Part shown: positions 7,532-26,799 of the stretch, piece by piece
Layout of the letters: each line of letters begins with the position of its first letter
Numbering within the stretch: position 1 is the stretch's first letter
Source: an uncultured Planctomycetota bacterium
GTDB taxonomy: Bacteria > Planctomycetota > Planctomycetia > Isosphaerales > Isosphaeraceae
Length of the DNA: 64,000 bases
Reading direction: 5' to 3'
Assembly: GCA_963845755.1 (NCBI GenBank)
Contig: CAWJTV010000005.1
Location: forward strand, 512,001 to 576,000
Notes under the pieces: model-generated
Seen by the model: only the letters and a program-made list of their open reading frames with translations
Told to the model about the DNA's origin: nothing
The model's database searches: none
Made by a program: the position numbers and the translations under genes

Positions 7532-8124
7532 GGCTCTTCCCCCAGCAACTGGGTAAGCCGCTTTACCGCTCGTGCCCACAACGTTCGGACCGCGCCGACC
7601 GAACGACCCATGTCCGTGGCGATCGTCTGGAACGGGACATGCTCTAGCATACGCCGGATCAACGCCTCGCGATAGTCGTCAGGCAAATGATCGAGCGCAT
7701 CCGCCAAGAGCACGGACTGCTCGCGCCGGCTTGCCTGCTCGCTGGGGAGCTGATCGACGAAGCCAGTGCCTGCTGAATCGTGAGGCTGGAGCGATCGAGG
7801 AGTCGTTCCAGTGACTCCTGGCGCTGGTGGTCGTCGCGCCTGGCGGCGGTGGTGCTTGACCTGGTTGGCCAGACTCCAAACCAGAATCCGCCTCAGCCAG
7901 GCCACCAGCTCGGGCTCGCTTCGGCCTGCGAATTCCGTGAATTCGCGGTGTGCCTTCAAGAACGTTTCCTGAACCAGGTCCGACGGCTCAAGCTTGACCT
8001 GCAGCGCGCCACTGATGAGCGAACGGGCCACCAGCCTCAAGTAGTTGCGGTATAGCTCAAGAAGCTCTCCGCGTGCCGACGCGTCTCCCCTGCGGGCCTT
8101 CTCAAGCAGCCGTTCGGGTATCAT
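7528..8124 (-). CDS. ECF sigma-70 factor, Planctomycetaceae-type (apparent pair of compensating frameshifts mid-gene)
   Basis: LLEKARRGDASARGELLELYRNYLRLVAR...SDLVQETFLKAHREF...WLRRIL...LPDDYREALIRR...IATDMGRSVGAVRTLWARA. Confidence 0.88.
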   Translation of the reverse strand: MIPERLLEKARRGDASARGELLELYRNYLRLVARSLISGALQVKLEPSDLVQETFLKAHREFTEFAGRSEPELVAWLRRILVWSLANQVKHHRRQARRPPAPGVTGTTPRSLQPHDSAGTGFVDQLPSEQASRREQSVLLADALDHLPDDYREALIRRMLEHVPFQTIATDMGRSVGAVRTLWARAVKRLTQLLGEEP

Positions 8125-8167
8125 GTCGTCACGCACGACGGAACCCCCCAGTAGGCGATCAAGTGGT

Positions 8168-8345
8168 TGGCAGACGAACTGGATTTTGAGTCCGGTACGT
8201 CTGCCATACTCGTGGTATTGGAAACACGTCGGAGCGACACTTAAAGCCAGTGGTTTAGATGCAGTTAGGATGCAATATTCACCCGCGTACCCTATAGCCG
8301 CATTGGGCTGATATTGCCAATCCTGTTGCCAAATTGTTGCCAAAT
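8168..8345 (-). repeat. att-like module B: tRNA-Leu(CAA) anticodon-arm core plus arm repeats
   Basis: GGATTTTGAGTCCGGtaCGTCTGCCA matches the D/anticodon region of the tRNA fragments. TTGCCAA occurs three times at about 8314-8343. Confidence 0.8.
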
Positions 8346-8523
8346 CGGCCTCGCTGGTAGGCTTCCCGCTTGGTTGGGATGGTCGGCCGAACGGGGCCGC
8401 ACCTATTCAGCCGCTTCATCGTGCGTCCTGTTATGATTCTGCTGCTGCGGGGCGATTGTATTTCCCAACCGCGAGGCAGAGTTACGTGGGAGCTGTCCGA
8501 TGCGTGGAAACATGTTTCACTAG

Positions 8524-8736
8524 ATGAACATAGAAGGTTACATAATAAGTATCCGCAATGAGATGGTCGATGAAATTAAGCGGTTGTCGGACGACGAAAT
8601 CCTTAGCGGATGGGCCGCAATAGCGGACCCTACTTGGTCGCGGGACGGTCCGCAATGGCGGACCGTACACGTTATGAATTGCCGCGCACAAAGTCCAGCG
8701 GCTACTCCCTCACGCTTCGACGCCGAAGCCGCGTGA
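8524..8736 (+). CDS. Small hypothetical protein
   Basis: 70-aa ORF with plausible composition; no recognisable motif. Confidence 0.35.
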   Translation: MNIEGYIISIRNEMVDEIKRLSDDEILSGWAAIADPTWSRDGPQWRTVHVMNCRAQSPAATPSRFDAEAA

Positions 8737-8802
8737 CGCTGTTCGGGAACACTTACCGGAGCTATCTTGCGCGTCCCTGTCTGAATCGGGCCACTCGCCG
8801 GT

Positions 8803-9546
8803 TCACTTCGGCTCGGCGAACGTGCCGGTCTCGACCTTATCCAGGACCTTGAACTCGGTGATCTCCATCTCCGAAGACGGCTCGCCGTTGGTTTTCACTT
8901 CGATCTTGGTCGCCTTCTTGATTCCGCCCATGTCCTTGTAGTCGAGGAACGTCGATTCCACGGAGAATTCCCGTCCGGCGGGGCCGGTCATCGTGGCGAC
9001 CTCCTTGACCGGGAGGCCGCTTTCCTTGTCGAAAAAGAGTATGAAATCCTTGCCGTCGGGCGCCGTGACTTTGAGGACGACGGCCGGTTTATCGCCGACC
9101 TTTTCCGCGCCGGCTGCCTCTAACTTGAAGCCTTTGTCCTTCAGAGGCATGAGGGTGACTGGGATGAGTTGCAGGTAGGCGCTTCGTTTCTCGTTGGCAA
9201 GGCTGCCAGCGTCGAGCTCGGTGGTTTCGTCTCTGCGCTTTCGCCAGCCTTTTTCGCCGTCGATGACCAGGATGCCGGTGAACTCAGGTAAGTTGATCTC
9301 GCGGCGAAAATGGTCGAGGCCGCTCGCCGTCACGTGGCTCTCCAAGTCGCGCTCCCCGCCGCCGGTGTGCAGTGTGACCTTGGCTTTCCAGGACTGCGCG
9401 GCGGCTTTCGTGAGCTTCTCCTCGCCGCCCAAAGCCCTGATGGCTTTGTCGAGGATAGACTTCGTGCCCTGGTCGTCGGCTCGGGCTGGGCCGAGTGCTG
9501 CGAATGAGAGGGCCGTCACGAGCAGGATGGTGGTGTGCCGCTTCAT
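8803..9546 (-). CDS. Secreted hypothetical protein (LolA-like beta fold suspected)
   Basis: Signal peptide ...ALGPARA, ILDKAIRALGGEEKL, LFFDKESGLPVK, FLDYKDMGGIK; coding-like codon usage. Confidence 0.8.
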   Translation of the reverse strand: MKRHTTILLVTALSFAALGPARADDQGTKSILDKAIRALGGEEKLTKAAAQSWKAKVTLHTGGGERDLESHVTASGLDHFRREINLPEFTGILVIDGEKGWRKRRDETTELDAGSLANEKRSAYLQLIPVTLMPLKDKGFKLEAAGAEKVGDKPAVVLKVTAPDGKDFILFFDKESGLPVKEVATMTGPAGREFSVESTFLDYKDMGGIKKATKIEVKTNGEPSSEMEITEFKVLDKVETGTFAEPK

Positions 9547-9550
9547 GGAA

Positions 9551-9739
9551 TCACCTCAATTTGTAACTGTAAGAAGAACCGATTGCTACCAAGAGGAATC
9601 CGATCTGCTTGAAGTTGTTGATGCACTGACAAGTGCGCGCCGCTTCGCGCGAATCGGAGACGGTGCGCACCAGCCACGTTATCGGTGCGCAGGCGAGCGC
9701 GACGACTGCAACGTAGGCCATGGAGCGACGCACGGTCAT
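9551..9739 (-). pseudogene. Truncated DUF1559-family protein
   Basis: TM segment followed by SREAARTCQCINNFKQIG, the start of the DUF1559 domain, then an early stop. Confidence 0.65.
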
Positions 9740-9947
9740 TCGAGCCCTCCCATCGCCCCTCTGGTGCTCAACCTCACGGCTTGGCAGGCGGAACCGCTCG
9801 TTCGGCCGTTCCAGGTCCCGGCATCGTCCAGCGCCCACCTGTCCGGCTCAACTATGGATCACCTGTTACAGATTCTGGAATCGCGCCGCGCCCGCAAAAC
9901 AGGGTCAACAATGATTCAGAATTGCCACTCTTGGCCCTCGATGCGGG

Positions 9948-10670
9948 TTAGTTCAGTAGATAATAGTCCAGACAGAAATACTTGTCGTAAGATTCGCTAC
10001 ACAGCTCCAGAAAACCGGAGAACGAAGGGGCTAATGCAGTGATCCGATGTTCCTCATGGAGAATCCACGCCGTTTGGTCATCGGCTTTGCGAAGCACCAT
10101 GTCGCCTCCCAACGTCGTGTGGAGAATCAACGCATCGAACCATTCTCTAATCATAGGTCTGAATTCCGGTTCAAAGTCGTCTTCTTCCCAGCCAAGCGCC
10201 CGGAACGATTGCCACTCTTCAGGCCGCTCGAAGTTGCCAGCGGATACCGGGCGCTCCCTCACCCCGTGAAAGTGGTTGTAGAACTCTCGGATCAGATCGA
10301 ATCCAGCGAGGTCCTGATTTGCCAGGCATTTCTCCAAGACCACCGGATGCAAGGGAGCTTCGATGTAGACCGTTCCATCACGATCTTCATCTTCATCCCG
10401 ACGATTGAGTCCCAAGTACCATTGCGTGCCGTCCTGGGCCAAGGCGAACGGGCGAAACTTCAGAAGAACGTCACGGAAACGCGCCACGCTGGGATAGCGG
10501 ATGCTAGCCCATTCCATCGAGAGGGTCCGGATGATCTCAGCAGCGTTCCGCCCGATCCAACGCTTCATCCACGGTGTGAGTCCTTCGGTGGATGGCAGAT
10601 CGGTGAATTTGCACGGCAGCGCATACTCATCCCACGCCCACTGTCCTGAAGGGTCGATCTGAACTCGCAT
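9948..10670 (-). CDS. Hypothetical protein, possible SMI1/KNR4 (SUKH)-like immunity protein
   Basis: IREFYNHFHG...HTTLGGDMVL...WILHEEHRITALAPSFSGFLE resembles a SUKH C-terminus. Confidence 0.6.
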   Translation of the reverse strand: MRVQIDPSGQWAWDEYALPCKFTDLPSTEGLTPWMKRWIGRNAAEIIRTLSMEWASIRYPSVARFRDVLLKFRPFALAQDGTQWYLGLNRRDEDEDRDGTVYIEAPLHPVVLEKCLANQDLAGFDLIREFYNHFHGVRERPVSAGNFERPEEWQSFRALGWEEDDFEPEFRPMIREWFDALILHTTLGGDMVLRKADDQTAWILHEEHRITALAPSFSGFLELCSESYDKYFCLDYYLLN

Positions 10671-10965
10671 CTGACCTGCTCCTTGTGACCTCCAAACTGA
10701 CCGACGTCCGCCGCGGGCACAATCAACCATGGAAAGAGTCGAGCAAAAGCCCCAGCATCGCCGAGTGGGCCGTGGCCACCCTACCACGATGGTCCCTTGG
10801 CCCTCCGTTTGACTCTGCCACTGATCGCCATCCGCCGAGCAACTGACAAGCCTCAATAATAGTTCAGCCGTACCACGTCTAGTCCACGCACCCGCACCCG
10901 TTTTGGTTCACGAATCGATCCACCAAGATAGCGACCTCGAGGCCAGCGGCGGGCCGCTACAGGTG

Positions 10966-11427
10966 TCAGGCGTTCAGCCTGGTAAGAGGGGCTCGGTATC
11001 GTTCGGCGACATCGCCGTAGATCGCGATATCTGGCTCGTACCGGTCGAAGTTCTCCAAAATTTTGATGATCCCTTCGCGGATGAGTTGCCCGACCGGGGC
11101 GACCTCGGCGGGCTCGTGATCCAGGCGGAACTCGATGACGCTGCAGAACGAACTGACTGCATCGGTGTCTTTGTCGGCCTGCTCGCTTAATAGATAATCG
11201 ATGGCGGCTGGTACGTAGAATCGAAAAGCGATGGGGCCCATCCACATCAAGTCTTCCTGGGATACCAGGAAGTTTTCGCGAAACAACGCCTCGGCTTGCT
11301 TCAACTCCTTGCCGAGGAAATGCTCGACTGCAGTTCGCTCATCGAGAGAGTCAAAGAGGTTGATCTCCGCCGCATTCGGCAGATGCGCGTCAGTCCGTAA
11401 CATGGATTGCTTTCGAGGCCGCCGCAT
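10966..11427 (-). CDS. Hypothetical protein (cassette gene)
   Basis: 153-aa acidic ORF, EDLMWMGPIAFRFYVPAAIDYLLS; RBS-like AGGGG upstream. Confidence 0.75.
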   Translation of the reverse strand: MRRPRKQSMLRTDAHLPNAAEINLFDSLDERTAVEHFLGKELKQAEALFRENFLVSQEDLMWMGPIAFRFYVPAAIDYLLSEQADKDTDAVSSFCSVIEFRLDHEPAEVAPVGQLIREGIIKILENFDRYEPDIAIYGDVAERYRAPLTRLNA

Positions 11428-11528
11428 TGATCACCCCTGACAAGTCTCATGGCTTGATCATCCGTTCCACCTTCACCCATCGTTCCACGCCGCGGTGTCC
11501 GCGCCAACTATAGTTCAGGCGTTGCAAA

Positions 11529-11759
11529 CTACGCGGCGGGCCTCGGTTTGCTCCACGCCAGATAAGTTCCGGCGCCGATAAGTAGGATGCCCCAGGCGGC
11601 GAGCCCGTTCACATCGTTGAACATCCTGCGGCCATCAGGATCGGCAACCGATGAGAGCAAGTACCAGAGGAGGACCAAGGCGCCACCGACGACCACCGAT
11701 ATGATGCCCGCGATCTTGTAGACCCACTGCATTGAGCCCTCCTGACGACTGTAGCCCAT
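11529..11759 (-). CDS. Small two-TM membrane protein (cassette gene)
   Basis: Two hydrophobic helices; alternative start at 11732 after AGGAGG. Confidence 0.7.
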   Translation of the reverse strand: MGYSRQEGSMQWVYKIAGIISVVVGGALVLLWYLLSSVADPDGRRMFNDVNGLAAWGILLIGAGTYLAWSKPRPAA

Positions 11760-11909
11760 TCCTTGTCATCCGGGGCAGTCGCATGGCCCGGACCTCCGCG
11801 ATGACAGACTCGCAAGCCTCGTTTCTGGACCGGCCGTCCCAGCTTTCTGCATCGTCCCGCGCCCGACTGTCCGCGTCAACTATAGATGAACGGATGCGTT
11901 CCCGGACGG

Positions 11910-12782
11910 TCATTTTGGCCCCAGCGAGTCGGGTGGGACGGAAAGCCAGCGAAGTGGTCCGCAGTAATCGTACCCGGCCCCGCTCCTTCGGACCGAGATC
12001 CGATACTGATGGTCTAATTCCACGCCCTCCTGGGAGGGGCTGTGGATCGCGAGTTGGAATGTCTCCATCGGCAGGCGGCCCTGGATCACCTTGTCGATCT
12101 TGAGGGTCACGACCCACCCTAGGCGTGGATCGAGTGTGGCGCCGCCCACGTTGTCGATCCTCGTGACGGTACCGAGGAAAACCGTCTCCTCCAGACTCTT
12201 GAAGGATGAATAAATAAATTCACTATGGAATTTAAACTCATAATGCCACCAAATATGGGCGACCGTCGGCGGCGGATTCGGGCCACTCAATGCATCATCC
12301 CGGACTTCGCGAGGAGTGCCGCGGAAGCCCCCCGACTCGCAGCCACGCATCTCCCAGACTGGCCCTTCCTCTGCTGGTATATCCTTGGCGCCCCAGGTTT
12401 TGGAGAAGAAGTCGAACTTGACGGGTGTCTCTAATCTCTTGCCATTGACGCTCGTGACAGAAAAGTACGGCGTATCATCCTTAGGCGGCTGGTTGGGGAG
12501 CCCACGAGGTCGAATCCACGAACCCTGGATCGTGACAAGTTCCCCCAGGGGATATCCGAGGCGACCGATGATCTGGACTCGCGTCCCGATGTCGGACGCG
12601 AGCACCTTCTGCACCGGGGGCTGGACTTCGATCGGTCCCGCGGGGGCTGCACCCGAGGAATCGCGGGGGAAGTTTTCGGCCCTCTTCCGCGAGGTCTTTT
12701 CCACTTGTCCCTCTGCCATCAATCCTGCGAGCATCAGGACCCCGATCGCCGCGCCGGCGAACGCCCAATTCTGTGCCTTCAT
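11910..12782 (-). CDS. Secreted hypothetical protein (cassette gene)
   Basis: N-terminal signal MKAQNWAFAGAAIGVLMLAG, GGAGG RBS, IIGRLGYPLGELVTIQG. Confidence 0.75.
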   Translation of the reverse strand: MKAQNWAFAGAAIGVLMLAGLMAEGQVEKTSRKRAENFPRDSSGAAPAGPIEVQPPVQKVLASDIGTRVQIIGRLGYPLGELVTIQGSWIRPRGLPNQPPKDDTPYFSVTSVNGKRLETPVKFDFFSKTWGAKDIPAEEGPVWEMRGCESGGFRGTPREVRDDALSGPNPPPTVAHIWWHYEFKFHSEFIYSSFKSLEETVFLGTVTRIDNVGGATLDPRLGWVVTLKIDKVIQGRLPMETFQLAIHSPSQEGVELDHQYRISVRRSGAGYDYCGPLRWLSVPPDSLGPK

Positions 12783-13036
12783 CACAGGCCCCTCCGTCCG
12801 AAACGGCTCAATCAGATGCTGTCTCCGGTCCACCCGTTGCAGATTCCCGCATCCTCCCGCGCCCTCCCGTCCGCGCCAACTATAGTTGACCGTGTCCACT
12901 TTCTGCCACCGTCCCGCGCCAACTATAACTCGCTCGTCACGTTCTTGATTGGGTGGGCAGGCCGGGTAATGGCCGGAGATTAAGGCCCAGCCCACACCAA
13001 CCAAGCCGATAAGGAGGGGAGAAAGGACGCCAAGGG

Positions 13037-13159
13037 GAGTGAAACAGGGTCGCAGCTAGTTTTGGGGGGTGAAACAGGGTCGCAGCTAGTTTTGTACTCG
13101 AAGATGGAGTTGGGAGTGAAACAGGGTCGCAGCTAGTTTTGTACTCGAAGATGGAGTTG
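13037..13159. repeat. Tandem repeat GTGAAACAGGGTCGCAGCTAGTTTTG x3
   Basis: Copies at 13039, 13069 and 13116. The last two share the same following sequence TACTCGAAGATGGAGTTG. Confidence 0.9.
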
Positions 13160-13368
13160 TGGCCAAGCGACCGAACGAGCAGCACCGATCGTTCGTCGGC
13201 GACGCATAGGTCATCTGCTCGGGCTGCGGATGCGCTGCTTTTAGGGCGTCACTCGCCCCCGACTCGACCAACGACAACCCCGCGAGCCAAAGCAACGAAT
13301 CACCGCAAGCGGATAGCACTGGGGACATTCTGTCCTTCCCCACCGATCGTCTGTTGCGCCGGAGATTC

Positions 13369-13465
13369 GAGGTGGCGGGAAACTAACCCGCGTCCTTATT
13401 AGACGCAAATATTTGCAAACAAATGACTTATAGCATAAAACGGAGGCGGCGGCAATTGCACCTGC
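13369..13465 (-). other. Two degenerate tmRNA(ssrA)-like 3'-end fragments (att scars)
   Basis: Reverse complements GGACGCGGGTTAGTTTCCCGCCACCTC (13369-13395) and GCAGGTGCAATTGCCGCCGCCTCCG (13441-13465) resemble the tmRNA T-arm/acceptor 3' end. Confidence 0.55.
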
Positions 13466-14210
13466 CGCCCCGGTTTATCGAGTCGTTCTTACCATCGCCT
13501 CTGTGGAGTCGCCGGTGTCAGATCTGTATTCGGTTACCCAGACACCACCTGTTCCTGCGAATCTTGCTCGCGTCGGTCCCACGATACGAATGGCGCTAGC
13601 TTGGGCCCAAGTCGTTTCTTGTAAAGGATTTGGACCTAAAGCGTGCGGATTTCTTGCAGGAAATATTATGATATATTAGTATCCCAATTAGATGACTAGA
13701 CGGGAAATATAGGGCGTGAAATGAAGTTGGTTCGCCTTTCACGATTGGTATCACACGACGGGCGAGTTTCAGGATTCCGCCGGGTCGCCTTGGGGAATCG
13801 CTCCCCCAAAGCGACCCGGCGACATCCGTTAGCGACTCCCCCGCCGCAGGTGGGGATGCTCGAGTGAGCACAAGCCGGTTTCACACACGGATCCAACGCC
13901 CCGCCACCGATGAGTACTCCCATGATGGCGTCGGTCCGCAACTCTCGGCCGGCGTCACCACTGACGATGCCTTGCGCAGTCGATCCGCTTGCATAAGGCG
14001 ATCCTCGCGGGCGGTTCCACAAAGAACCGGACCGCGAACGTCGAGACCACACATGCCGAGCCGCGGTGTGCGTGCTGGCGGTCGCTCGACTGGGCCGCCG
14101 TCGCATTTTGTCGCGTTGACACCGTCAGGAGTCTCGGCAAAGATCTCCGCCTCTGTAGCGGGCACACAAATCGATCCGGAGCCGGCATCGACAAGAGAAG
14201 GGGGACAACG

Positions 14211-15220
14211 ATGTCCAATGATCCGCGTCACAGGTCACGCCGTCGCAGGCAAATCCAGGTCGAGCTGCTCGAGAGCCGCGCGCTTCTGAGCGCGAGTTCG
14301 GTGTCCTCTGCGGAAAGGTCTCTGCTCATCACCCCATCGAGTGAGTATTGTGAACCAGCAAGAGAGTGCGTTCACGGTTACCCTGACTCTGGAGAAAGCG
14401 CAGGCCCAAGCGAAAGTGGTGGCCGCAGGGGGGTACACGGCTGCTGCGCTGGATGAGCCGGTGACCGTCGACTTCAGTGCGTCGCTCGAATCGACGAGCG
14501 GCGGGCCCACGACGGCGGCGAGTCCAATTTTCGCGCCCTTTAACGAGTCGGTCACATTCCCGGCCGGCGTATCGACCGAAACGGTCACTGTCCCGATCAT
14601 CTCGACTGCGGCCACGCCTGGCCCGGTGGTGATCTCGCTCTCGGCGACGACGACGTCCTCGTCTGTGCAAACCACATCGTGCCGATGATCTCCCAGGCTA
14701 CTTGCCGGCGGTACCCCCAGATTGGGTGGAGCTCTACAGCAGCCCGAACGCCGTCCCACCGACGATCACAAGCGTTCAACTGGTGACACAGGGCAAGCTC
14801 GCGTCGGCCGTCGTGCTCGGCTTCAGCAAACCGATGGTGCCGGCGACTGTGGAGAATATCCACAATTATCGGATCCTGTCGCGGCCCACTACGACCGACC
14901 ACAGCAGTTTTACATTTTCGGGCTTCGTCTGCAAGAGTCGGATAACCACAGAATACCAATCCTTTCCCATCGCGGCGGCGACCTACGATCCCTCGACCTC
15001 GACGGTCACGTTGACGCTGAAGCGGCCTGCCAAGGCGTCGAGACTGTACCAGATTTCCAGCGCGTACCCACTCAGAGGACATAAGCTTACCGATCTGCAG
15101 GGTCAGCCGCTGAGTCCAGATTCGACCCCCGGCACGGGGACGTTTACTATCGGAGTTCGCGGGTTTAGTGCGGAGGCGACCTCATGGGCGCCGCGTTCGC
15201 TCAAGTCCACCTTGGGTTAG
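14211..15220 (+). CDS. Planctomycete secreted protein with Calx-beta-like domain, frameshifted
   Basis: VELLESRALLS signal motif; SVTFPAGVSTETVTVPII; continues across three frames (14341..14688, 14702..15220). Confidence 0.65.
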
Positions 15221-16177: not shown

Positions 16178-17171
16178 ATGACACGTTCAGACGCGATCAT
16201 CAGGCGGCAACTCCTCAAGGCCGGGCTCATCGTCGCCGGGGTGCCGTTCTGTCCCGAAGCCCTGTTCGACCGGCGCGCCGCCGCGGACGACGAGAAGCCG
16301 GCGGAGACGCCCCGATCGGGCGGCGCGAGATCGTCAAGGGGCTCGACGGCATGAGCCGGGTCGCCGACAAGGGGAACACATTCGGCCTCGGGCACAACGC
16401 CGCCGCCGTCATCTCGTCCGCGTTCTTCTGCCGCGAGCAGAAGCTCGACGCCGACACGCAGAAGGAGATTCTGGCCTTTCTCGACGCCCGGCTGTTGAAG
16501 AACCCGATCTACGCGGCGGCCCGGCCGAAGGAGACCGCCGACCCGAAGCTCGTCGAGGGGCTGCTCGAAGACCTCGACGCCGGCATCGCCACGCTGCGTG
16601 GGAAAGGCCACAACATCATCTTCGCGGTCACCTGCCTCAAGGCCCTCCGCGAAGTGCCCGAGGCCGCGACGCCCGAGCGGATCGGCGGCCTGCGGAAGAT
16701 GGTCCAGAGCTTCGGGAAGACGAAGGGCGCGGCCGCGAAGGATCCCGATCCGCTCGTGGGCCTCGACGACGAGCAGAAGTTCATCCACTTCATTTTCGAG
16801 GAGTTCCTGAAGGCGACGGGCGACGGGTTCGACGGGCACGTGGTGACGATCGGTCACGCCCTGGTCGAGCTGCACCGCATGGGGCACAAGGAACTGGCCC
16901 GCAAGGGTGTCCCGGCCTACTGGCAGTGGGTCCGGGGGGCACGCGCGGGGAACGAGGGCGAGGGCGAAGCCGCGCCGCCCCGCCCCAGGCACCGACCCCG
17001 CTCACCCGCGAGTACTGGGCCGCTCAGGCGAAGCGCCGCGTCGGCGAGATCGTCAGCAGCCACATGGTCAAGTACCCGTACAGCTTCTACGCCCTGGCCA
17101 AGGACGTGAAGGACGAGGACCTGAAGAAGCGGATTCTGGCGAAGGTGTACCGCTTGACCGCGACTAACTGA
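16178..17171 (+). CDS. Probable Tat-exported hypothetical protein, frameshifted
   Basis: IRRQLLKAG twin-Arg signal; His motifs GHNAAA, GHNIIFA, GHVVTIGHAL, SHMVKY; pieces in three frames. Confidence 0.65.
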
Positions 17172-17235: not shown

Positions 17236-19005
17236 CTAATCGGTGTAGTATTTGTTTTCGTCGGGGAACTCTTCGCCCGCGAGAATCTCGTCCTTTTGCG
17301 CCAGGAATCGTTCCAGCGGCGGACGTTGCGTGAGCCCAATGGCCCGCTGGCAAGCGTGGGCGAGCGCAAGCAGGGTGCTTTCGTCGTAAACGCGGCCAAT
17401 CATCATTTGCGGTTTTGGCAACGGGAAACCGTCCTTCGCTTCGAACTTCTTCGGGAACACGATCATCGGATGCCCCGTCAAATTGCCGTACCAATCCCAT
17501 CGGTCATCCGGAGCGACGCCCGTAATCCATTCGTCACACAGAAAGACATCGACGGCCTGCATCATTTTGTCATGTCGCTGCATGATGATGGCCCGCAGCC
17601 GATTGAGCTTCAGATAGTCGACAGCCGTTTGAAAATGGCCAAGCAAAAACCACTGAGGCCAACCTTTCACGCCCTTGGGCTCTCCACGACGCGTGAGGTC
17701 TTCGAACGCGGCGGCCGACTCGCTGGCAACAAGCCCTGCCGAGAGCTCATTCTTCGCCAGTCCGTAGTCCTTTTTCAAATTGGGCGGTTCGACGGGGACG
17801 AGTTTCACGCCCAGTTCGCGCAGGACTCGAAAATCATCGCTTTGCTCATCTTCGCCCCCTTTTGCGACGTACCCCACTCGAATCGTGGAAAGCTCCCGCG
17901 ACGAAGGCCAGACGTACGGCCGGTCGACAGATGCCGCGTCGCGCGGATCGGCGCCGTGAATCGCGGCGAGAACCAAACCGCAGTCGTCAGCGTTGCGGCA
18001 GATTGGCCCGATCTTGTCGAGCGACCAACAGAGTTGCATGCAGCCATATCGGCTGACGCGTCCATACGTCGGTCTCAGTCCCACGGCACCGCAGACGATG
18101 GAAGGGCCGATGAGGCTGAACGTGGTTTCGGTGCCGATGGAAAAGCCGACGAGTCCGGCGGCGGCGGCCACTGCCGACCCAGACGACGAACCCGCTGCAT
18201 CTTGGCGGGGATTCCAGGGATTCCGGGTTATGCCGCGATACCACAAAACCGATCCGCCGGCCAATGTATTGGTGGCCAATTTCGCTACGAGCACCGCACC
18301 GGCATTTTCAAGCCGTTCGGCGACGGCCGCTTTCACGTCGATCACGCGGTCGCGATATTGCCCCACGCCCCATGTCGTGGGATAGCCGGGATAGGAAAGG
18401 ATGTCCTTGATGCCCCAGGGGATTCCGTGAAGCGGTCCTCGATCGTTTTTGGCCCGCAGATCCTGATCGGCGCGCTCCGCTTGTTTCAGTGCCAGCTCGT
18501 CCATGTAGGTCACGACACATTTGAGCAGCGGGTCGTAGCGCCGGAGCCGTTCCAGATACAACTTCGTCAATTCCACCGACGAAATCTGTCGATTGCGCAA
18601 CAGTTTCCCGAGCTGCCGAATGGAACTGAACGCCAGATCCTCGTCGGAGTCAGGCCGTGAAACCGGATCAGGGGCCGGTGCCGGCGATGTCATGACCTCG
18701 TAACCGCGCGGATCAGGAAGTGACGCGGGACTGGCGAACGGAACGAACCGGAGCCCCGGAAGCAGCGAATTGTCGACCTCGATCGCTCGAACATGTTCCA
18801 AGTCCTCTGGCGCCCACTTGAAGGCCTTGACGACCGCTTCCCGCTGCGGCTCGGTGAGCTTGATGCCCGCCACCCATTCTGCGTCCGCAACCATTTGTGG
18901 CGAAACAGGTCCGCCTCCCGCCGTCGCCGCCAACGCCCGTTGAAAAACGGCCGTTCCTATCCCGGCCGTCCCAAGAACCGCCAGCGCACTTCGCCGACTG
19001 AGCAT
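17236..19005 (-). CDS. Amidase signature (GatA-like) family protein, Tat signal
   Basis: SRRSAL; GPLHGIPWGIKD, GSSSGSAVA, IGTET, GLRPTYGRVSRYG. Confidence 0.93.
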   Translation of the reverse strand: MLSRRSALAVLGTAGIGTAVFQRALAATAGGGPVSPQMVADAEWVAGIKLTEPQREAVVKAFKWAPEDLEHVRAIEVDNSLLPGLRFVPFASPASLPDPRGYEVMTSPAPAPDPVSRPDSDEDLAFSSIRQLGKLLRNRQISSVELTKLYLERLRRYDPLLKCVVTYMDELALKQAERADQDLRAKNDRGPLHGIPWGIKDILSYPGYPTTWGVGQYRDRVIDVKAAVAERLENAGAVLVAKLATNTLAGGSVLWYRGITRNPWNPRQDAAGSSSGSAVAAAAGLVGFSIGTETTFSLIGPSIVCGAVGLRPTYGRVSRYGCMQLCWSLDKIGPICRNADDCGLVLAAIHGADPRDAASVDRPYVWPSSRELSTIRVGYVAKGGEDEQSDDFRVLRELGVKLVPVEPPNLKKDYGLAKNELSAGLVASESAAAFEDLTRRGEPKGVKGWPQWFLLGHFQTAVDYLKLNRLRAIIMQRHDKMMQAVDVFLCDEWITGVAPDDRWDWYGNLTGHPMIVFPKKFEAKDGFPLPKPQMMIGRVYDESTLLALAHACQRAIGLTQRPPLERFLAQKDEILAGEEFPDENKYYTD

Positions 19006-19318
19006 GATTCAACTCCCTCGAGTGTTTGACGACGACCGGACCGGAGTCGCGTCGGCCCCACGCCAGCCGCCAGTCTATCTTAACTCCGAGTCGCCAAACG
19101 CAACCTCTTTGGCTGCGTGACCACAATTTTTCCCGGAAATAGGAGCGACCGCCAGGCGAGCTCCAAGGTCGGAGAAGGATGGCCGAAGTGATGGCAAGGC
19201 ATCAACCAACCACGTCAAGTGCAGGATGCGAAACTGCATCGGTCGCGTCAACTGAATGCGTCGAACGGCACGCAGGCGTCAAAAATACATATTACAGGTC
19301 GCAGACGTTCATTCCGTC

Positions 19319-19408
19319 ATTCCGGGGACACCATACCGATCTCCGGCATAGCATCATTCCGGGACACCATACCGATCTCCGGCATAGCATGAATTCGGGC
19401 GACACCAT
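19319..19408. repeat. ~36-bp tandem repeat (TTCCGGGGACACCATAC family), about 2.5 copies
   Basis: ATTCCGGG(G)ACACCATACCGATCTCCGGCATAGCAT x2 plus a partial copy. Confidence 0.85.
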
Positions 19409-19595
19409 GCCTGCCACCAGCCGTCAACTGGCCAAGTGGCCCATGCGCTGGCCAAGACTCGAATAGTGGGGCGTCCCCATGACCGAGGTACAGCTCAAGA
19501 AGCACGGCCGCAACGCAGGGAGTCGTCAACATCAGCACCAGGCGGTAACGTTCCTGACGCACAGACGAAGACTGCGATGTGCCTCAAGCCGCTAA

Positions 19596-19858
19596 TACCG
19601 AAGGTGGGACTTGAACCCACACCCTCTTGCGAGGACCGGATTTTGAGTCCGGCGCGTCTGCCATCGCCGTCGCATTGGAAACAGGTTGCGGTGGTGCTTA
19701 AAGTCTGCGAATCCAAGGCTCGCACGTCGCCACCTTGGTGTTTTCGCATTGTGGCCGCATGGGGCTGACGTTGCCAATACTGTTCCCAATTTGTTCCCAA
19801 CTCGCGTCCGAATGGAGGCCCGTACAGGCTTGTTCGTGGGTGATGGGCTGACGGGGCG
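19596..19858 (-). repeat. att-like module D: 69-nt 3' fragment of tRNA-Leu(CAA) (19596-19664) plus arm region
   Basis: Reverse complement ATGGCAGACGCGCCGGACTCAAAATCCGGTCCTCGCAAGAGGGTGTGGGTTCAAGTCCCACCTTCGGTA; the 5' acceptor and D-stem strands are missing. Confidence 0.92.
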
Positions 19859-19912
19859 GTTTCCTCGCGGCCCTCGTCGTCGGAATCGTGGGTAACTTCG
19901 TCTTCTCGCTTA

Positions 19913-22900
19913 TTATTCGGATACCGTCATGAGCGAATGGGAGAGGCCGATCTCGGCGATGAAGGCGAAGTCGTTGAAGTCGGTCATCGTGTCATAGGCG
20001 CCGCTTGCGGTGAAGCCGAGGAGGAGGCGATCGTTGCGGTCGGGGAGAGAGGAATGCAGGCGGTTGGCGTAGGCGATGTCGTCGCGAAACCAGCAGACGC
20101 CGGGGGCGGAGCGGCTGTCGAAGTCGCCGGGCGCGTAGTACCTGCGATGGAGCCAGCCGTACCGGGGGCCGTTGCGCACGTTGATCGAGACCGTCTGTTC
20201 GGCCCACGGGGTATCGACGGCCTGGACACGGTCTCGACTCAGAGTACCGTCCGCCCGCGAAAAGGTAGATTCGCCCCGTGGCATCGAGCCCGTGTTCGGG
20301 TCGCCAGAGCAGGGCCAATCGGCGGCGGGCGAACGAGGCCGTCGACCACGTTCCGACCCGATCTCGAGGAACCGCGCGCGGCCGCCGCCCTCGGAGACGT
20401 AATGGTGAACGCTCACCCGGGGATGGCGTGGGTCGGGCCCGCCGATCGACGCGACCCAGACGGTCGGGAGTCCGCCGCGATTGGGGCCGGCGGCCGCGGC
20501 GACGGGTACGACACTGTCGATCGGCAGCTCGAGCTCCGGGCCCGTCTCGAGCCCGGTCGCCGTGGGCGCGAGTCGGCGGACGCCGACGGGCCGGCCCGGC
20601 CCGCGCCACAGAAAGAGGGCCAGGCCATCGCCAAGGGCGGAAAGTGAGGGGTCCGCCCCATCGCTTTGCTCGATCGGCACTGCCTCTCCGACTCGCGGGG
20701 TCGCGTCTGCCGCTGTCCGAGCGTCACCCGCCGCAGGCGAACCCCGGCCGCCGTGGGGTAAGCGACCCAGATCGCGCTGCGCCAAAGGAGACGGCAGTCG
20801 GGTCGCCGATGACGCCGTTCGCCTCAACCACCGTCTCGGCTGACCACCGCTTACCGTCGCGGTCGCGGTCGTCACCCAGCCACGCTTGGACGACGAGTGC
20901 ACCTGGACGTTCGGGGCCGAGGCTCGCGGCAGCGGCGGGGGCGTCCGGGGCAGGGCGGGGCGAATTGCCACGCACGCTGCCGGAGAAGAGCAGCAGTCGC
21001 TCCGCTGGCCCGTCGCCCACGGTCGCCAGCGCGGGCGCCGACTCGCTCGCTCCGACCTCGTATCTACGGCGACCGATATCGGTGAAATGGCTGTAATTGA
21101 TGTCAGCGACCACACCCTCCTCCCCGAAGATTCCGTTCCAGTTCCAGTCGACCAGGGTCGATCCGCCCGCAGGCCGCAACTGGTAGAAGTACGGGTCGTT
21201 GGCCAGAAACCGAACCCGCTCGATCGGCACCGGCAGGCGCTCCGAGAGTCGTCGCTCGTCAGAGCAAGATCGACCCCAGCGCTCCGCTCGAAAGCTGCTT
21301 CAACTCGGCCCGACCGTTGAGTTTATCTTGGTAGGTATAGCTCATCAGGCTGGGATAGATCGGACAATTGTGCGGCTGATAGCCGTCGTGGTTGAGGCCA
21401 AGCTCGTGGCCGAACTCGTGCGTCATGACGTCCATGAATCACGTCGTTGGTCGTGAAGCTACCGACGGCGCTCATCATCATCGCGGTGCCGAATCCCTGG
21501 TCGGCGGATCGACGCAAAACATCGTGTGCACGACGCCCCGGTGGGCTCCGTGTGGGGATCAATCGTTGAAGATCGCCGTCGGACGTCGTCAACTCGGCTA
21601 TGAGGCGTCGGCTCACGGTAGATCACGTGCAGAGCGATCCCGCGGCTGCCGTCCGGGTTTGGCACATGCGCCTGGGCGAAGGCGCGAACCGTAATATCGA
21701 CCTCGGCCTTGAGCCGATCGAAGTTGATCGAATCGATCCGCTCGACCTCGACGATCACGTCGCGGCGCCCGACCCGGCAGCCGATGGACTTCAGATCAAG
21801 GCCACCCGGCCGCACGCGGCCAGTCTTCCAGTCATCGAGCAGGCCGTCGCCGGACGAGGAAATATAGCCCTTGTGCTCGTCACCCTCAAGCGAGGAGAAG
21901 TGGATCAGCGTATCGTGGGCGAGGAACGGGTCGGTCCATCGCGAATAGTGACTTGACCACCAAGGGGGCTCGGGGGCGACCCAGCCGGCGAACGGCGGGC
22001 CCGACTCTCGCTGACGGAGCAGGTCGTCGCGGCCGTTGCCGTCGAAGTCGCCGACGATCCAGCGGCGGTCGCCGCTTCATCTCCGCGGGCGTTGGGAGGG
22101 TCGCCACCTCGAAGGCACGCGACGGATCGCCCCCGGGAAGCAGACGACGGCCGATGAGCACGTCGCAGGTCGCCCCGCCGCGAAACCGGCCGACCATGAC
22201 CCGTTCGGCTGGCGCCGCGGTCAGGAGCCGGGTTGCCGGGTCGAGGCGGGGGCGTCGGCCAGCCGAGAACGTCAGGCCTGCCCGGAAGACTATGTTCGCG
22301 CCGTCCTTCCAGACAAGCTCGGCCCGACCGCCGGCGACAAAGTGGCCGGCGGCTAGCTGGGCAACCTTCGGCGGCAAGGTCCCTTCGATCTCCTCGCACT
22401 GGAACCTGGGCGACGAGGCTCCGGCCGTTTCGTTGCGCAGGAGCAGCAGCCTTCCGGAATCGTCTACAACGACGGCATCAGTCCAGGCCGTCGCCGTCGA
22501 ATTCGCCCGCCACCAGGCGAATCGGCAGACGCGGCCTCATGCCGGGCGCGATCGTCGCGGCGAGGTCGTCTCGCTCGTAGGCCGCATCTCCCCGACGCGT
22601 GCCCCAGGCGATGCGCACCGAGCCGTCGGCGAAGACCGCAAGCACATCCTCGCCCGCGCCCTTTGTGAACCGTCCGGCGATCGCCGCCATGCCGTCGCGG
22701 CCGAATCCCTTGCGGGCCGCCACCTGCGGGGTCGGCTTGCCAAGGATCGACGTGCGATAGACCCAGAGCGATGCGTCCCCCCTGGGATCGAAGGCAACCA
22801 AATCGGCCCGCCCATCGCCGTCAACGTCGGCCACGAGCGAGTTTACTGGCCTGGCCGCCCAGTCGGTCAGCCAGTACTGGCCACGGCTCAGGGCATACCC

Positions 22901-25476: not shown

Positions 25477-26799
25477 CTACCCGAACACACTCTTTAGTGC
25501 CTCGGCCTGGACGCTCGGATACAAATGCCGATAACGCTTCCGTTGCTGCTCGGTGCTGTGACCGACCCACTCGTCGATGAGACGCTGGTCGATGCCCTTC
25601 GAGGCGCAGGCGGAGATGAACGAGTGCCGGAAATTGTGCCAGCCTCGCACTACCGACCATTCCGATCCAGTCAGCGCGCGCTTCAAGTGGTCGCCGGCCT
25701 CATCTTCAGTCAGCGGCAGGATGCCTGGCCGCGTTCGCTCCGTGACGCCGACCAGCCTTTCCTTCACGGTGCCGGGCCGGCCGTTCCACAGATGGCCGGT
25801 CGTGCGGCTGCGCTTCTTGCTTCGTTCGACATGCTCGGCCTGGGCGAACAGGTACGCGCCGCCTGGGTGGATCTTCAGCCAGTCGGTCAGGATCGCCGCC
25901 AGCGTGCTCGATAGCGGCATGCGGCGCGTCGTCCTGCGGCCATGCGCCCGCTTCTTTTCCTGGATGCTGACGACGCCCGCCGCGAAGTCCACGTCGCCGA
26001 TCCGCATCCTCAGCAGCTCGCCCTTGCGCGCACCGGTGTGAGCTGCCGTCGCCACAAGCGGATAGATCCACGGATAGCCGGCCCGCTCCTTGACGTGGGC
26101 CAGCAGCCTCTCCACCTCGGGCAGCGTCAGGTAGAGCGCTTCCCACAATTCGGCGGCCTTCTTCGGCGGCAGGCCGGGAAGTTGCCGTTCAATCTCGGCG
26201 CGCGTCTGGAACAGCGGCTTCTCGTCTGATTTCGGGTAGCGCAGGCCGTCGTAGGGATAACGGCCCGATACGATCTTCATCCGCACCCCCCAGTTCCAGG
26301 CGGTGCGGAGCGTGACGATCTCCTTTTCGATCGTCAACGGATTCAGCGTGCCGCGCCTCCCCTTGGCTTTGGCCCGCTTATCCACATAGCCCTGCAAATC
26401 GGCCAGGGACAGTTTGCGAACTGGAAACCCCTCTCCGAGCAACCGGCCCAGGTGCCGGAAGTGCCGCCGGATGCCCCGCAACGTGTGATGCTCGAGGGTG
26501 CCGTTGCCATGCGTTTCCAGGTAGCGGTCTCGGAGGTCGGCCAGCGTCGGTTCGCCGTGAACGGCGGGCGTACCCTGTGCGGCGGGTATGAGGCCATCGT
26601 GCCGGACGAAGGCTACGACATCGACCCCTTGCTGGAGCGTGAGCAGGCCCTGCGATAACCGCATGAGCAGGTAATCGACTTGATCCGCTTTGGCCTTCGC
26701 CTCGGCCTCGGTGACGCGGCCGATGGTGAAAACCCGCTGTTTCCGTTGGTACGCGAAGAAGATTCGGTAGCTGCCGTTCCTGTTCTGTAGCGACGCCAT
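25477..26799 (-). CDS. Tyrosine recombinase / phage integrase
   Basis: N-terminal arm-binding-like MASLQNRNGSYRIFF; catalytic TGARKGE, HNFRH, VGH, RYRHLY; starts about 105 bp from the tRNA 3' end. Confidence 0.93.
   Translation of the reverse strand: MASLQNRNGSYRIFFAYQRKQRVFTIGRVTEAEAKAKADQVDYLLMRLSQGLLTLQQGVDVVAFVRHDGLIPAAQGTPAVHGEPTLADLRDRYLETHGNGTLEHHTLRGIRRHFRHLGRLLGEGFPVRKLSLADLQGYVDKRAKAKGRRGTLNPLTIEKEIVTLRTAWNWGVRMKIVSGRYPYDGLRYPKSDEKPLFQTRAEIERQLPGLPPKKAAELWEALYLTLPEVERLLAHVKERAGYPWIYPLVATAAHTGARKGELLRMRIGDVDFAAGVVSIQEKKRAHGRRTTRRMPLSSTLAAILTDWLKIHPGGAYLFAQAEHVERSKKRSRTTGHLWNGRPGTVKERLVGVTERTRPGILPLTEDEAGDHLKRALTGSEWSVVRGWHNFRHSFISACASKGIDQRLIDEWVGHSTEQQRKRYRHLYPSVQAEALKSVFG

Follow-up and report, generated by a model that had tools for sequence, protein, structure and literature searches.

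Introduction

Integrons are the textbook example of a dedicated gene-capture machine, and clusters of attC sites without an integrase are known as CALINs. On Acinetobacter plasmids, pdif sites have an 11-6-11 layout with inverted arms and alternate in orientation. Staphylococcal cassette chromosome (SCC) elements, which are moved by the Ccr large serine recombinases, are tens of kb long, carry many genes and use a single chromosomal site. To our knowledge, rAID-1 is the only other array type that can be named as having a layout comparable to the one described here. These recombinase-associated acquired interbacterial defence clusters occur in Bacteroidales and have an XerD-like tyrosine recombinase (bioRxiv 10.1101/471110).

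Here we analyze an array of small genes in a 64,000-nt stretch of an uncultured planctomycete genome (contig CAWJTV010000005.1), hereafter the window. With moderate confidence, we assign the array to an undescribed family of site-specific cassette arrays found in very large genomes of the soil planctomycete type, for which we propose a large serine recombinase encoded on contig C48 of the same genome as the enzyme.

Results

A composite repeat bounds the units of the window array

An earlier note on this DNA had listed seven 28-nt cores, and all of them are present in the window sequence (9841, 9898, 10846, 11497, 11869, 12869 and 12912). The repeat, described there as 57 bp long, is in fact a composite of ~90 nt that reads, in gene orientation, box A, B, a second box A (A2) and C; the 57 nt are retained as its internal period, measured between the two A boxes. 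Matches to the 17-nt motif GTCCGCGYCAACTATAG lie at 11497, 11869 and 12869 (3 observed versus 0.01 expected over 100 shuffles), a repeat search of the window recovers four copies of 72 nt with 65–100% identity at 9793, 11449, 11821 and 12821, and an nhmmer profile finds five window copies with E values from 1e-9 to 2e-13. The five co-oriented minus-strand ORFs claimed previously are all in the window ORF list, and the reported stop-to-core distances of 4, 13, 22 and 92 nt are confirmed (stops at 11529, 11910, 9948 and 10966). The resulting units are given in Table 1.

Table 1 Units of the window array and their ORFs, listed in gene orientation
Feature	Position	Strand	Description
Array start, gene-less remnant unit	12886..12946	-	Box A, then shortened box B; core hexamer 12923-12928
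Unit 2	11883..12882	-	Leader B, A2, C (about 12821-12882); ORF; 3' box A ending at core 11880-11885
Unit 2 ORF	11910-12782	-	290 aa; apolar signal-like N-terminal run
Unit 3	11511..11882	-	Leader (about 11821-11882); ORF; 3' box A ending at core 11508-11513
Unit 3 ORF	11529-11759	-	76 aa; two apolar runs
Unit 4	10860..11510	-	Leader (about 11449-11510); ORF; 3' box A ending at 10857-10862
Unit 4 ORF	10966-11427	-	153 aa; weak DUF6714 match, E 0.008, under the Pfam cut-off
Unit 5	9912..10859	-	Junction with unit 4 without box B: box A (match at 10880), directly C-like leader, ORF
Unit 5 ORF	9948-10682	-	About 244 aa; the gene labeled SUKH-like in the earlier note
Unit 6	9855..9911	-	Gene-less, 57 nt, flanked by core hexamers 9909-9914 and 9852-9857: divergent box B and box A
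Unit 7 (last)	9551..9854	-	Leader (about 9793-9854); short ORF ending at 9551

At the array start, box-A weight-matrix matches lie at 12946 and 12903, and no copy of the head element described below is found near the window array. The sites at 9898 and 12912 belong to units that are truncated or have no gene, and site 10846 is a junction without box B. Unit 6, which has an nhmmer copy at 9918 (E 1e-9) and box-A matches at 9932 and 9875, is a gene-less 57-nt tandem of a kind found 4 times among 160 copies. The box-A weight-matrix search gives no 3' box A for unit 7, and we therefore place the end of the array there; the ORF of this unit likely starts at an internal ATG near 9739 (MTVRRSMAYVAVVALA...). 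A search of Rfam with window positions 8000–15000 returned zero matches at E up to 1. We note that a 47-nt tandem repeat at 13035–13158 is peculiar to the window locus and unrelated to the cassette repeat.

The gene labels proposed previously are only partly supported. Pfam and NCBIfam give no family for the unit 2 ORF, and the labels “secreted” and “two-TM” correspond to apolar runs that are present in the sequence, their support being runs judged by eye. The unit 5 ORF has zero Pfam or NCBIfam matches, and what is left of the SUKH-like assignment is a weak lead from the ESM Atlas, where it falls with SMI1_KNR4 and Syd clusters (0.91–0.93) at a recognition under the reliability line. For the unit 7 ORF, described as a truncated DUF1559, a DUF1559-like stretch is present, but the Pfam match covers 17 residues and its 22.6 bits lie under the cut-off of 23.3. 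The cassette genes have a lower GC content.

Co-oriented arrays recur across genera

A genome-wide profile scan, suggested earlier as a check, reveals matches that form co-oriented arrays between unrelated small genes. The source genome (14.3 Mb) contains 30 repeat copies in 13 regions on 11 contigs; four relatives hold 61 more copies in 21 loci and other genera 69 copies in 20 loci, counts that overstate independence because the relatives are kin and the loci were picked for holding repeats. Within the order, 23 of 121 genomes, from 13 of 53 genera, carry the repeat, with 76–92% identity, and all 23 of these genomes measure 8.8–16.5 Mb.

Copies are intergenic and co-oriented with the next ORF, whose start lies 60–140 nt past the core in 58/83 cases. 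Neighbors less than 3 kb apart form 91 same-strand pairs versus 6 opposite-strand pairs, at a median spacing of 757 nt. Units measure about 0.06–3 kb and carry one gene each. The downstream ORFs are mutually unrelated, and 58 of 77 have no Pfam family, the remainder being LRR, WD40, CarboxypepD_reg, TPR, BamE or Clp_N proteins.

The repeat might instead be an ordinary dispersed one (a MITE, a REP-like sequence or an IS end) that lies beside small genes incidentally. It is short, multi-copy and non-coding, and other MITE-like repeats are plentiful in these genomes. However, the strand bias of neighboring copies and their intergenic placement in the orientation of the following ORF argue against this explanation, as do unit junctions without terminal inverted repeats or target duplications and the sharing of whole gene-bearing units at repeat boundaries. 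Already disfavoured, it has a probability that we regard as next to negligible.

Shared units break at the core

Units consisting of the leader, one ORF and the 3' box A are common to different loci, species and genera, with 83–97% identity. In fact, the entire unit 2 aligns with a unit of a congener (G001:C33:197503-198504) at 93% identity over 1002 nt, and the entire unit 4 with one from another genus (G077) at 96.8% over 665 nt, both flanks being unrelated in either case. We collected nine in-register pairs of units shared between different loci or genomes, whose 5' breakpoints lie at -8, -3, -12, 0, +3, 0, -67, -15 and 0 relative to the core. Eight of the nine thus lie between -15 and +3 nt from the CYATAG core; the repeat body (+20 to +90) contains none. 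Wherever a next core is present, the 3' ends lie no more than about 8 nt from it, with the exception of one pair that overruns it by about 50 nt.

Junction alignments reveal unrelated sequence on both sides of the shared units. At junctions that differ in their downstream sequence, the preceding unit retains “...AT” and the following one starts with “AT...”; in these comparative data, the breakpoints map to the shared AT, which is compatible with crossover at a 2-nt central dinucleotide. Junctions are seen with zero, one or two B-A modules, and the position of the break is unchanged in those that lack box B. These results bear out the earlier description of a cassette-like array whose units move whole and break at the CTATAG core: the comparison for gain, loss or reordering exactly at the core is positive, in that shared units break there and their flanks differ. 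The cassettes are probably mobile, to judge from sequence comparison.

Direct traces of movement were also sought. Public data, which consist of short metagenome contigs, gave no excision joint, circle or single-unit empty site. One metagenomic “skip” joint from 9835 to 11497 was rejected, as it joins two repeat copies with 4 extra letters and most likely derives from a different member of the family. We found no case of orthologous arrays that keep their flanks but differ in cassettes, and the congener has no region syntenic to the window locus. Compared with this congener, the C28 array differs by a whole 11.7-kb island, while the C12 and C15 arrays give scattered matches only.

The location of the breakpoints bears on whether a dedicated recombinase is needed at all. 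The repeat could be a shared promoter and leader, with units shuffled by homologous recombination or gene conversion across the ~90-nt copies. The fixed distance from repeat to ORF start, the conservation of the repeat across genera and the lack of a consistently adjacent recombinase are all in line with this explanation, and copies about 80% alike might sustain some exchange. Homologous exchange, however, predicts breaks anywhere in the repeat, contrary to their clustering at the core and absence from the body, and junctions without box B share that breakpoint. A simple sigma-70 scan found no promoter-like site within the repeats, its two regional matches falling elsewhere, which counts against this explanation and likewise against the cassette reading preferred below. 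We consider this alternative quite improbable.

The site lacks an attC hairpin and inverted arms

The earlier note had held that the repeat is not an attC site, and our analysis agrees: the hairpin is absent, and classic attC sites occur in this genome as part of a true integron of their own. Fold energies of 30 copies, computed as DNA on both strands, equal those of shuffled sequences, and no common stem is present. Covariation suspected by eye, which would pair box A2 with box C in a stem, was rejected by permutation (-4.85 for own versus -4.82 ± 0.18 for swapped partners). The sole IntI above the cut-off (485 bits; cut-off 265) is a full integron integrase on contig C3 with its own classical array of attC sites of about 60 nt, separate from the cassette arrays, and no IntI was found near cassette arrays in 34 array regions or 20 further loci. 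One integron-like trait is present, namely co-oriented single-gene units that are exchanged whole at a fixed point of the repeat.

The proposed identity as a dif-like 11-6-11 simple site of a tyrosine recombinase did not hold, as the arms are not inverted repeats and the element is an asymmetric composite of ~90 nt. Dyad symmetry of the arms amounts to 3.57 of 11 matches in the 11-6-11 frame versus 2.90 ± 1.48 at control positions, and to 3.17 versus 2.93 in an 11-8-11 frame. Like pdif modules, the units are small gene modules bounded by short recombination sites and would be served by an enzyme in trans; unlike them, they have arms that are not inverted and sites that are all direct.

That no recombinase lies adjacent to the window array, as noted previously, was upheld. 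A search for a co-occurring tyrosine recombinase came out negative: 34 array regions spanning 641 kb yielded a single such ORF, and another 20 loci yielded none. The window integrase at 25477–26799, put forward as a possible actor, is a Phage_integrase protein of the usual kind and is not recurrently associated with arrays.

With both unit ends set just 3' of the same conserved box, an asymmetric site and no terminal inverted repeats, the units could also be non-autonomous single-strand transposons. An HUH (Y1/Y2) transposase or relaxase acting in trans would then cut each end on the 3' side of box A and insert 3' of another, giving direct tandems without terminal inverted repeats. The genome has Y1_Tnp genes (8 matches), and a Y1_Tnp gene closely follows the G001:C33 array. 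We nevertheless find this explanation very improbable, since no conserved hairpin accompanies the cleavage point on either strand and the fold energies are those of shuffles, Y1_Tnp occurs in 28/31 genomes of the family regardless of the repeat, Y2_Tnp was not found in the source genome, and no transposase recurs at arrays.

A head element opens many arrays and adjoins a large serine recombinase

A separate head element of ~230 nt stands at the start of many arrays; box-A-like sequences and a canonical A-C leader form part of it, and it continues into a typical cassette ORF. The source genome has 15 head copies, of which 9 have a co-oriented B-type repeat less than 4 kb downstream and 1 has one upstream, and the element is present in 8 of its 13 array regions. 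Among 34 true head copies, 28 have B-type repeats on their downstream side and 3 have them upstream at up to 5 kb.

At 10 loci in 7 genomes, the head is immediately preceded by the gene or a remnant of one lineage of large serine recombinase, the sole recombinase that recurs at arrays. The only intact copy, of 792 uninterrupted codons with Resolvase, Recombinase and Zn_ribbon_recom domains, is the one on contig C48 of the source genome; of the 10 copies linked to a head, 9 are either remnants or interrupted by stop codons. The C-terminal half of the C48 protein has close homologues (>=58% identity) in 8 of the 121 genomes, 7 of which bear the repeat; conversely, just 7 of 23 repeat-bearing genomes have such a homologue. 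At loci picked by the recombinase alone, the head lies directly downstream and co-oriented in 3/6. Close homologues in three genomes (G055, G071 and G072) are without head or array, one of these genomes also being without the repeat, and the wider recombinase family is multi-copy and mostly distant from repeats.

Two properties of the site count against a serine recombinase. For large serine integrases, a palindromic AT crossover alone would not fix orientation, and yet the arrays are co-oriented. Large serine recombinases also normally join unlike sites (attP and attB), whereas all cassette junctions share one left half.

The units may therefore be true cassettes that are handled by another enzyme, such as Xer or IntI in trans, with the serine recombinase belonging to a separate mobile element that inserts at, or decays beside, array heads. 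The decayed state of most head-linked copies, the distribution of the wider family, the three homologues without heads or arrays and the many repeat-bearing genomes without a close homologue all fit this alternative, and the genome encodes, besides the full integron integrase, many other tyrosine recombinases. A parasite of box-A junctions should, however, land anywhere, whereas the head is found at array starts and itself bears box A and an A-C leader running into a typical cassette ORF. Furthermore, the site has neither Xer-type inverted arms nor an attC hairpin, and tyrosine recombinases are missing from the array neighborhoods. We judge this alternative rather unlikely.

Discussion

In the reading that we prefer, a site-specific cassette system served by the C48 serine recombinase, both cleavage and joining of units would take place where box A ends on its 3' side, on the AT of the CYATAG core. 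Cutting at this point would allow whole units to be excised, perhaps as circles, inserted, and swapped among arrays, species and genera, and units would accumulate head to tail in a single orientation. The leader would move with its own gene and probably provides its expression signals. The C48 recombinase, from its single intact copy, may act in trans as the cassette recombinase, and the head element may take the role of the integron attI.

More tentatively, the system could be a serine-recombinase counterpart of the integron, that is, an independently evolved capture platform with (I) hairpin-free asymmetric sites, (II) self-expressed cassettes, (III) a head site 3' of the recombinase gene, and (IV) an enzyme with a C-terminal extension of ~400 residues. 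Its cassettes would circulate among soil planctomycetes across genera, and the small proteins that they encode, secreted or anchored in the membrane and some of LRR or WD40 type, may serve defence or immunity.

Integrons and CALINs resemble this system in their co-oriented arrays of mostly small and unknown single-gene units, repeated site, precise crossover and unit-wise horizontal sharing, and also in that many arrays have no functional integrase and some cassettes no gene. In contrast to integrons, the cassette repeats here have no attC hairpin and the arrays no tyrosine recombinase; the recombinase is co-oriented with the array, whereas that of integrons is divergent, and units carry a long conserved 5' leader, whereas integron cassettes are promoterless. 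SCC elements share a large serine recombinase acting in trans, tandem integration, direct-repeat flanks and composite arrays, but here units of one gene and about 0.06–3 kb occupy many arrays per genome.

The likeness to rAID-1 includes a 5' recombinase gene whose stop codon is followed at once by a conserved motif of its own kind, co-directional downstream genes with a repeated intergenic motif (up to tens of genes), mildly skewed GC in both systems, and close recombinase homologues confined to the array context (bioRxiv 10.1101/471110). rAID-1 differs in its tyrosine recombinase, where a large serine recombinase is associated here, and in its recognisable immunity genes, against 58/77 cassette ORFs without family and one weak SMI1_KNR4/Syd lead here. 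Most arrays here are without a recombinase, and phylum and habitat differ.

A third such system, if true, would show that cassette platforms have evolved repeatedly, distinctive features of the present one being hairpin-free sites, leader-carrying cassettes and a possible serine recombinase. It spans at least 13 genera with 9–16 Mb genomes, is common in soil metagenomes, and offers in its cassettes a rich source of uncharacterized small proteins, secreted or membrane-bound; study of the arrays would help explain gene gain in giant genomes. The system could also yield a new pair of site-specific recombinase and site for genome engineering, and the hypothesis is directly testable with one enzyme and two short sites.

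No RNA runs were found among the public runs that share words with the window array. Twenty soil or peat metagenome runs (11 studies) each contain 6–18% of the window-array words, small shares that show separate occurrence of array parts and assign no habitat. Metagenome contigs carry single units at 95–100% identity, or the B core alone, and diverge at the cores; one soil metagenome contig crosses the junction of units 3 and 4 with zero differences.

Architecture of the repeat and of the window array

Alignment of the 30 copies in the genome holding the window (G000), and then of 88 copies including relatives, reveals a composite repeat of about 90 nt. Read in the direction of the genes, it opens with box A1 (about 20 nt, with the ending ...GGGTGAaCCATAG), the 3' tail of the preceding unit. 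Then come box B (about 37 nt, best conserved over GGGCGCGGGACGATG), box A2, in which box A recurs with the ending CCAGAG, and box C, with the ending ...AGACTTGCCAG. A start codon follows about 10-50 nt downstream of box C. The 57 nt that an earlier note had taken as the repeat length holds as the A-to-A period, not for the full element. The usual junction between units carries one B-A module, gene-less tandems are junctions with two (4 among 160 copies), and in a third type there is none, box A being fused directly to a C-like leader; the window contains one such case. From its position, the segment preceding each ORF may function as a leader. A simple scan of the repeat for a promoter was negative.

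The window array comprises seven head-to-tail units, five with a single ORF each and two gene-less (see table). The seven cores that the earlier note had placed there are all present in the window sequence where it put them, and its stop-to-core distances of 4, 13, 22 and 92 nt agree with the ORF coordinates. A 17-nt core motif matches three times in the window versus 0.01 expected. Just upstream of the array start, a 47-nt unit stands three times in tandem; it occurs at a single locus in the genome and is absent from the searched loci of relatives.

Fold energies of 30 copies equal those of shuffled sequences on both strands, a suspected stem between A2 and C was not supported by a permutation test, and Rfam gave zero matches to the repeat. 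The earlier reading that the repeat is not attC is borne out by these energies and by the true attC sites of the same genome (about 60 nt), which bear no resemblance to it. These sites belong to a genuine integron, whose complete IntI scores 485 bits with TIGR02249 (cut-off 265) and whose attC array, divergent from the integrase gene, has at least nine sites of the classical GCCTAAC ... GTTAGGC type. The proposed dif-like 11-6-11 layout, on the other hand, is not upheld: over 156 copies, inverted arms match at 3.57 of 11 positions, control positions giving 2.90 +/- 1.48, and the site is essentially asymmetric.

Coordinates of features in the window and at other loci (C, contig; L, locus)
Feature	Location	Strand	Description
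Array	window 9551-12946	minus
ORF-bearing unit		minus	290 aa, signal-like N-terminus
ORF-bearing unit		minus	76 aa, two apolar runs
ORF-bearing unit	window 10860-11510	minus	153 aa
ORF-bearing unit		minus	about 244 aa
ORF-bearing unit		minus	short DUF1559-like fragment
Gene-less unit	window 9855-9911	minus
Gene-less unit	window 12886-12946	minus
Junction without B-A module	window 10857-10862
Example of an A|B junction	window 11850-11910
Block shared with congener	window 11882-12883
47-nt tandem	window 13035-13158
Integron integrase	G000 C3:161245-162186
Integron attC sites	G000 L009:11219-19304
Island	G000 L013:5353-17080 (contig C28)
Position lacking the island	G001:C3:280733-280825
MITE-like element	L013:8168-8295
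Second MITE-like element	L014:7917-8065
Uninterrupted recombinase	C48, open frame 17411-19787		Resolvase, Recombinase, Zn_ribbon_recom domains; long C-terminal extension
GC-rich inverted repeat	G000 C48, about 16830-16990
Head element	G000 C48, about 19790-19960
Tyrosine recombinase	G000 C41:17539-18672 (L011)		Phage_integrase and SAM-like N-terminal domain
Signal-anchor proteins	L039:8875-9153, L044:8591-8965, L040:8916-9368

Units are shared as wholes between genomes

When the array and its surroundings (17 kb) are used as query against the congener G001, one long high-identity match emerges (93% over 1002 nt), the remaining matches being mostly 66-73% identical with a few short high-identity exceptions. 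This block ends inside the core hexamers (CYATAG) of two consecutive repeats, and its flanks are unrelated on both sides. As a yardstick, at other loci the syntenic flanks of G000 and G001 share 74-89% identity. Similarly, the window's 153-aa unit has a counterpart in a different genus (genome G077), at 96.8% identity across 665 nt and again with unrelated flanks.

In an all-against-all comparison of 160 units we find nine in-register pairs common to different loci or genomes (83-97% identity, 334-1329 nt), with 5' breakpoints, counted from the core, at -8, -3, -12, 0, +3, 0, -67, -15 and 0. Homologous recombination between the 90-nt repeats would spread breakpoints across the repeat; this spread is not seen, none of the nine pairs breaking within the repeat body. 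The exchange exactly at the core that the earlier note had proposed for comparison across relatives is what the shared whole units, with their unrelated flanks and breakpoints mostly at the core, reveal. At junctions with differing downstream sequence, the upstream unit retains "...AT" and the downstream unit opens with "AT...". Because upstream units end in AT and downstream units begin in AT, we place the exchange point at this shared dinucleotide.

These comparisons, the central result of the analysis, suggest that units are mobile as wholes. Circles, empty sites and strain-level turnover were not seen in metagenome contigs and in locus comparisons between G000 and G001. The sharing of whole units and the co-oriented, repeat-bounded units across genomes support the cassette-like character of the array, and judged from sequence the arrays probably represent a site-specific cassette system.

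We note an 11.7-kb island in G000, absent from the congener. Its insertion point directly follows a conserved gene's stop codon, and it holds the contig C28 array together with genes on both strands. Inside a cassette of this array is an element of about 125 nt that looks like a MITE, with about 30 copies (82-94% identity) scattered over G001. A second such MITE-like element was found at another locus.

Distribution of the arrays

G000 (14.27 Mb, 64.4% GC, 49 contigs) carries 30 repeat copies spread over 13 regions on 11 contigs. DUF1559 matches, the size of the genome and a protein-atlas row that names Planctomycetota point to this phylum. Of 41 relatives, 8 contain the repeat (E <= 0.01); G000, G001, G008, G012 and G015 each show several strong matches. 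Across the order, 23 of 121 genomes, representing 13 of 53 genera, carry it (E <= 1e-9, 76-92% identity), counts that are not independent across relatives; every repeat-bearing genome measures 8.8-16.5 Mb. Seven candidates per genome were scored in this search, so that per-genome copy numbers are lower bounds. Genome G073 holds 17 copies on a single strand within one 20-kb stretch. Neighbours no more than 3 kb apart form 91 same-strand versus 6 opposite-strand pairs (160 copies), with a median spacing of 757 nt.

In 20 soil or peat metagenome runs from 11 studies, the window array is represented by 6-18% of its sampled words per run, and no run contains it whole. Contigs from four runs carry single units at 95-100% identity or the 36-nt B core alone, diverging at cores.

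A head element links some arrays to a large serine recombinase, the candidate enzyme

The only recombinase recurring at arrays is one lineage of large serine recombinase, with a single uninterrupted copy. Directly 3' of its stop codon lies a conserved head element (H) of about 230 nt, which runs from a box-A-like sequence through a spacer unlike box B to a canonical A-C leader, continuing into a cassette ORF whose N-terminus is of the typical kind. H is also repeated: G000 has 15 copies, and the relatives' loci have 19 true ones. Of the 13 array regions of G000, 8 contain an H. A co-oriented B-type repeat lies within 4 kb downstream of 9 of the 15 copies and upstream of one. Because the relatives' loci were picked for holding repeats, direction alone is informative there: repeats follow H in all, and additionally precede it in two.

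At 10 loci in seven genomes (G000, G073, G070, G067 and G096 once each, G068 twice, G001 three times), H is immediately preceded by the recombinase gene or a 3' remnant of it. G096 has a further copy, about 900 nt ahead of a co-oriented array that lacks H. At loci picked by the recombinase alone, H directly follows in 3 of 6. Of 121 genomes, 8 encode close homologues of the C-terminal half (at least 58% identity), and 7 of these 8 are repeat-bearing. Against the assignment stand the decay of 9 of the 10 H-linked copies, close homologues in G055, G071 and G072 without H or array, the lack of a close homologue in most repeat-bearing genomes among the 121 searched, and the window's own array, which has no H. 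We name this serine recombinase only tentatively as the best candidate for the cassette enzyme; for the combined reading, a site-specific cassette system driven by a serine recombinase, the balance tips slightly in favour.

On the question raised in the earlier note of a co-occurring tyrosine recombinase, the 34 array regions of five genomes (641 kb) contain one such ORF and a further 20 loci contain none. The ORF is divergent from the C41 array, at a distance of about 6 kb, and is the sole such case in 54 array loci. Y1_Tnp is near-universal across the family; a search of G000 for Y2_Tnp found none.

Other G000 members of the serine recombinase family are 35-55% identical and distant from repeats. 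This wider family numbers more than 12 copies, several split over frames and none near a repeat (contigs C6, C9, C11, C13, C19, C20, C21, C22, C25, C26 and C40); these copies are probably mobile elements of their own. On contig C48, a long GC-rich inverted repeat immediately precedes the left end of the block common to the two intact recombinase loci, G000 C48 and G096.

Integron CALINs are arrays without a working recombinase, and many arrays here likewise lack one. A preprint on the rAID-1 clusters of Bacteroidales (bioRxiv 10.1101/471110) describes a recombinase gene whose stop codon is followed by a special motif, together with co-directional genes that a repeated intergenic motif separates. 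The layout described is point-for-point the same as here, whereas the rAID-1 enzyme is an XerD-like tyrosine recombinase and our candidate a large serine recombinase. A full-text literature search outside subscription journals found no published description of the present cassette system.

Cassette ORFs

First ORFs have a median length of 157 aa (55 of 83 at most 200 aa), begin 60-140 nt past the core in 58 of 83, and have a slightly low GC content (median 61.9% versus 64.4% for the genome). No Pfam family (E <= 0.001) was assigned to 58 of 77; the rest match LRR, WD40 or beta-propeller, CarboxypepD_reg, TPR, BamE or Clp_N. An apolar run lies within the first 80 residues in 40 of 83, and 14 of 83 carry a strict N-terminal motif of the MRLPRVRFTVRRMM-IAVA type before unrelated C-terminal parts. 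Unrelated small cassette proteins at many loci have in common an N-terminal signal-anchor of the MR-LPR-VRFT-VRRMM type followed by an apolar helix, similar to, yet distinct from, the prepilin-type N-terminus of DUF1559 proteins.
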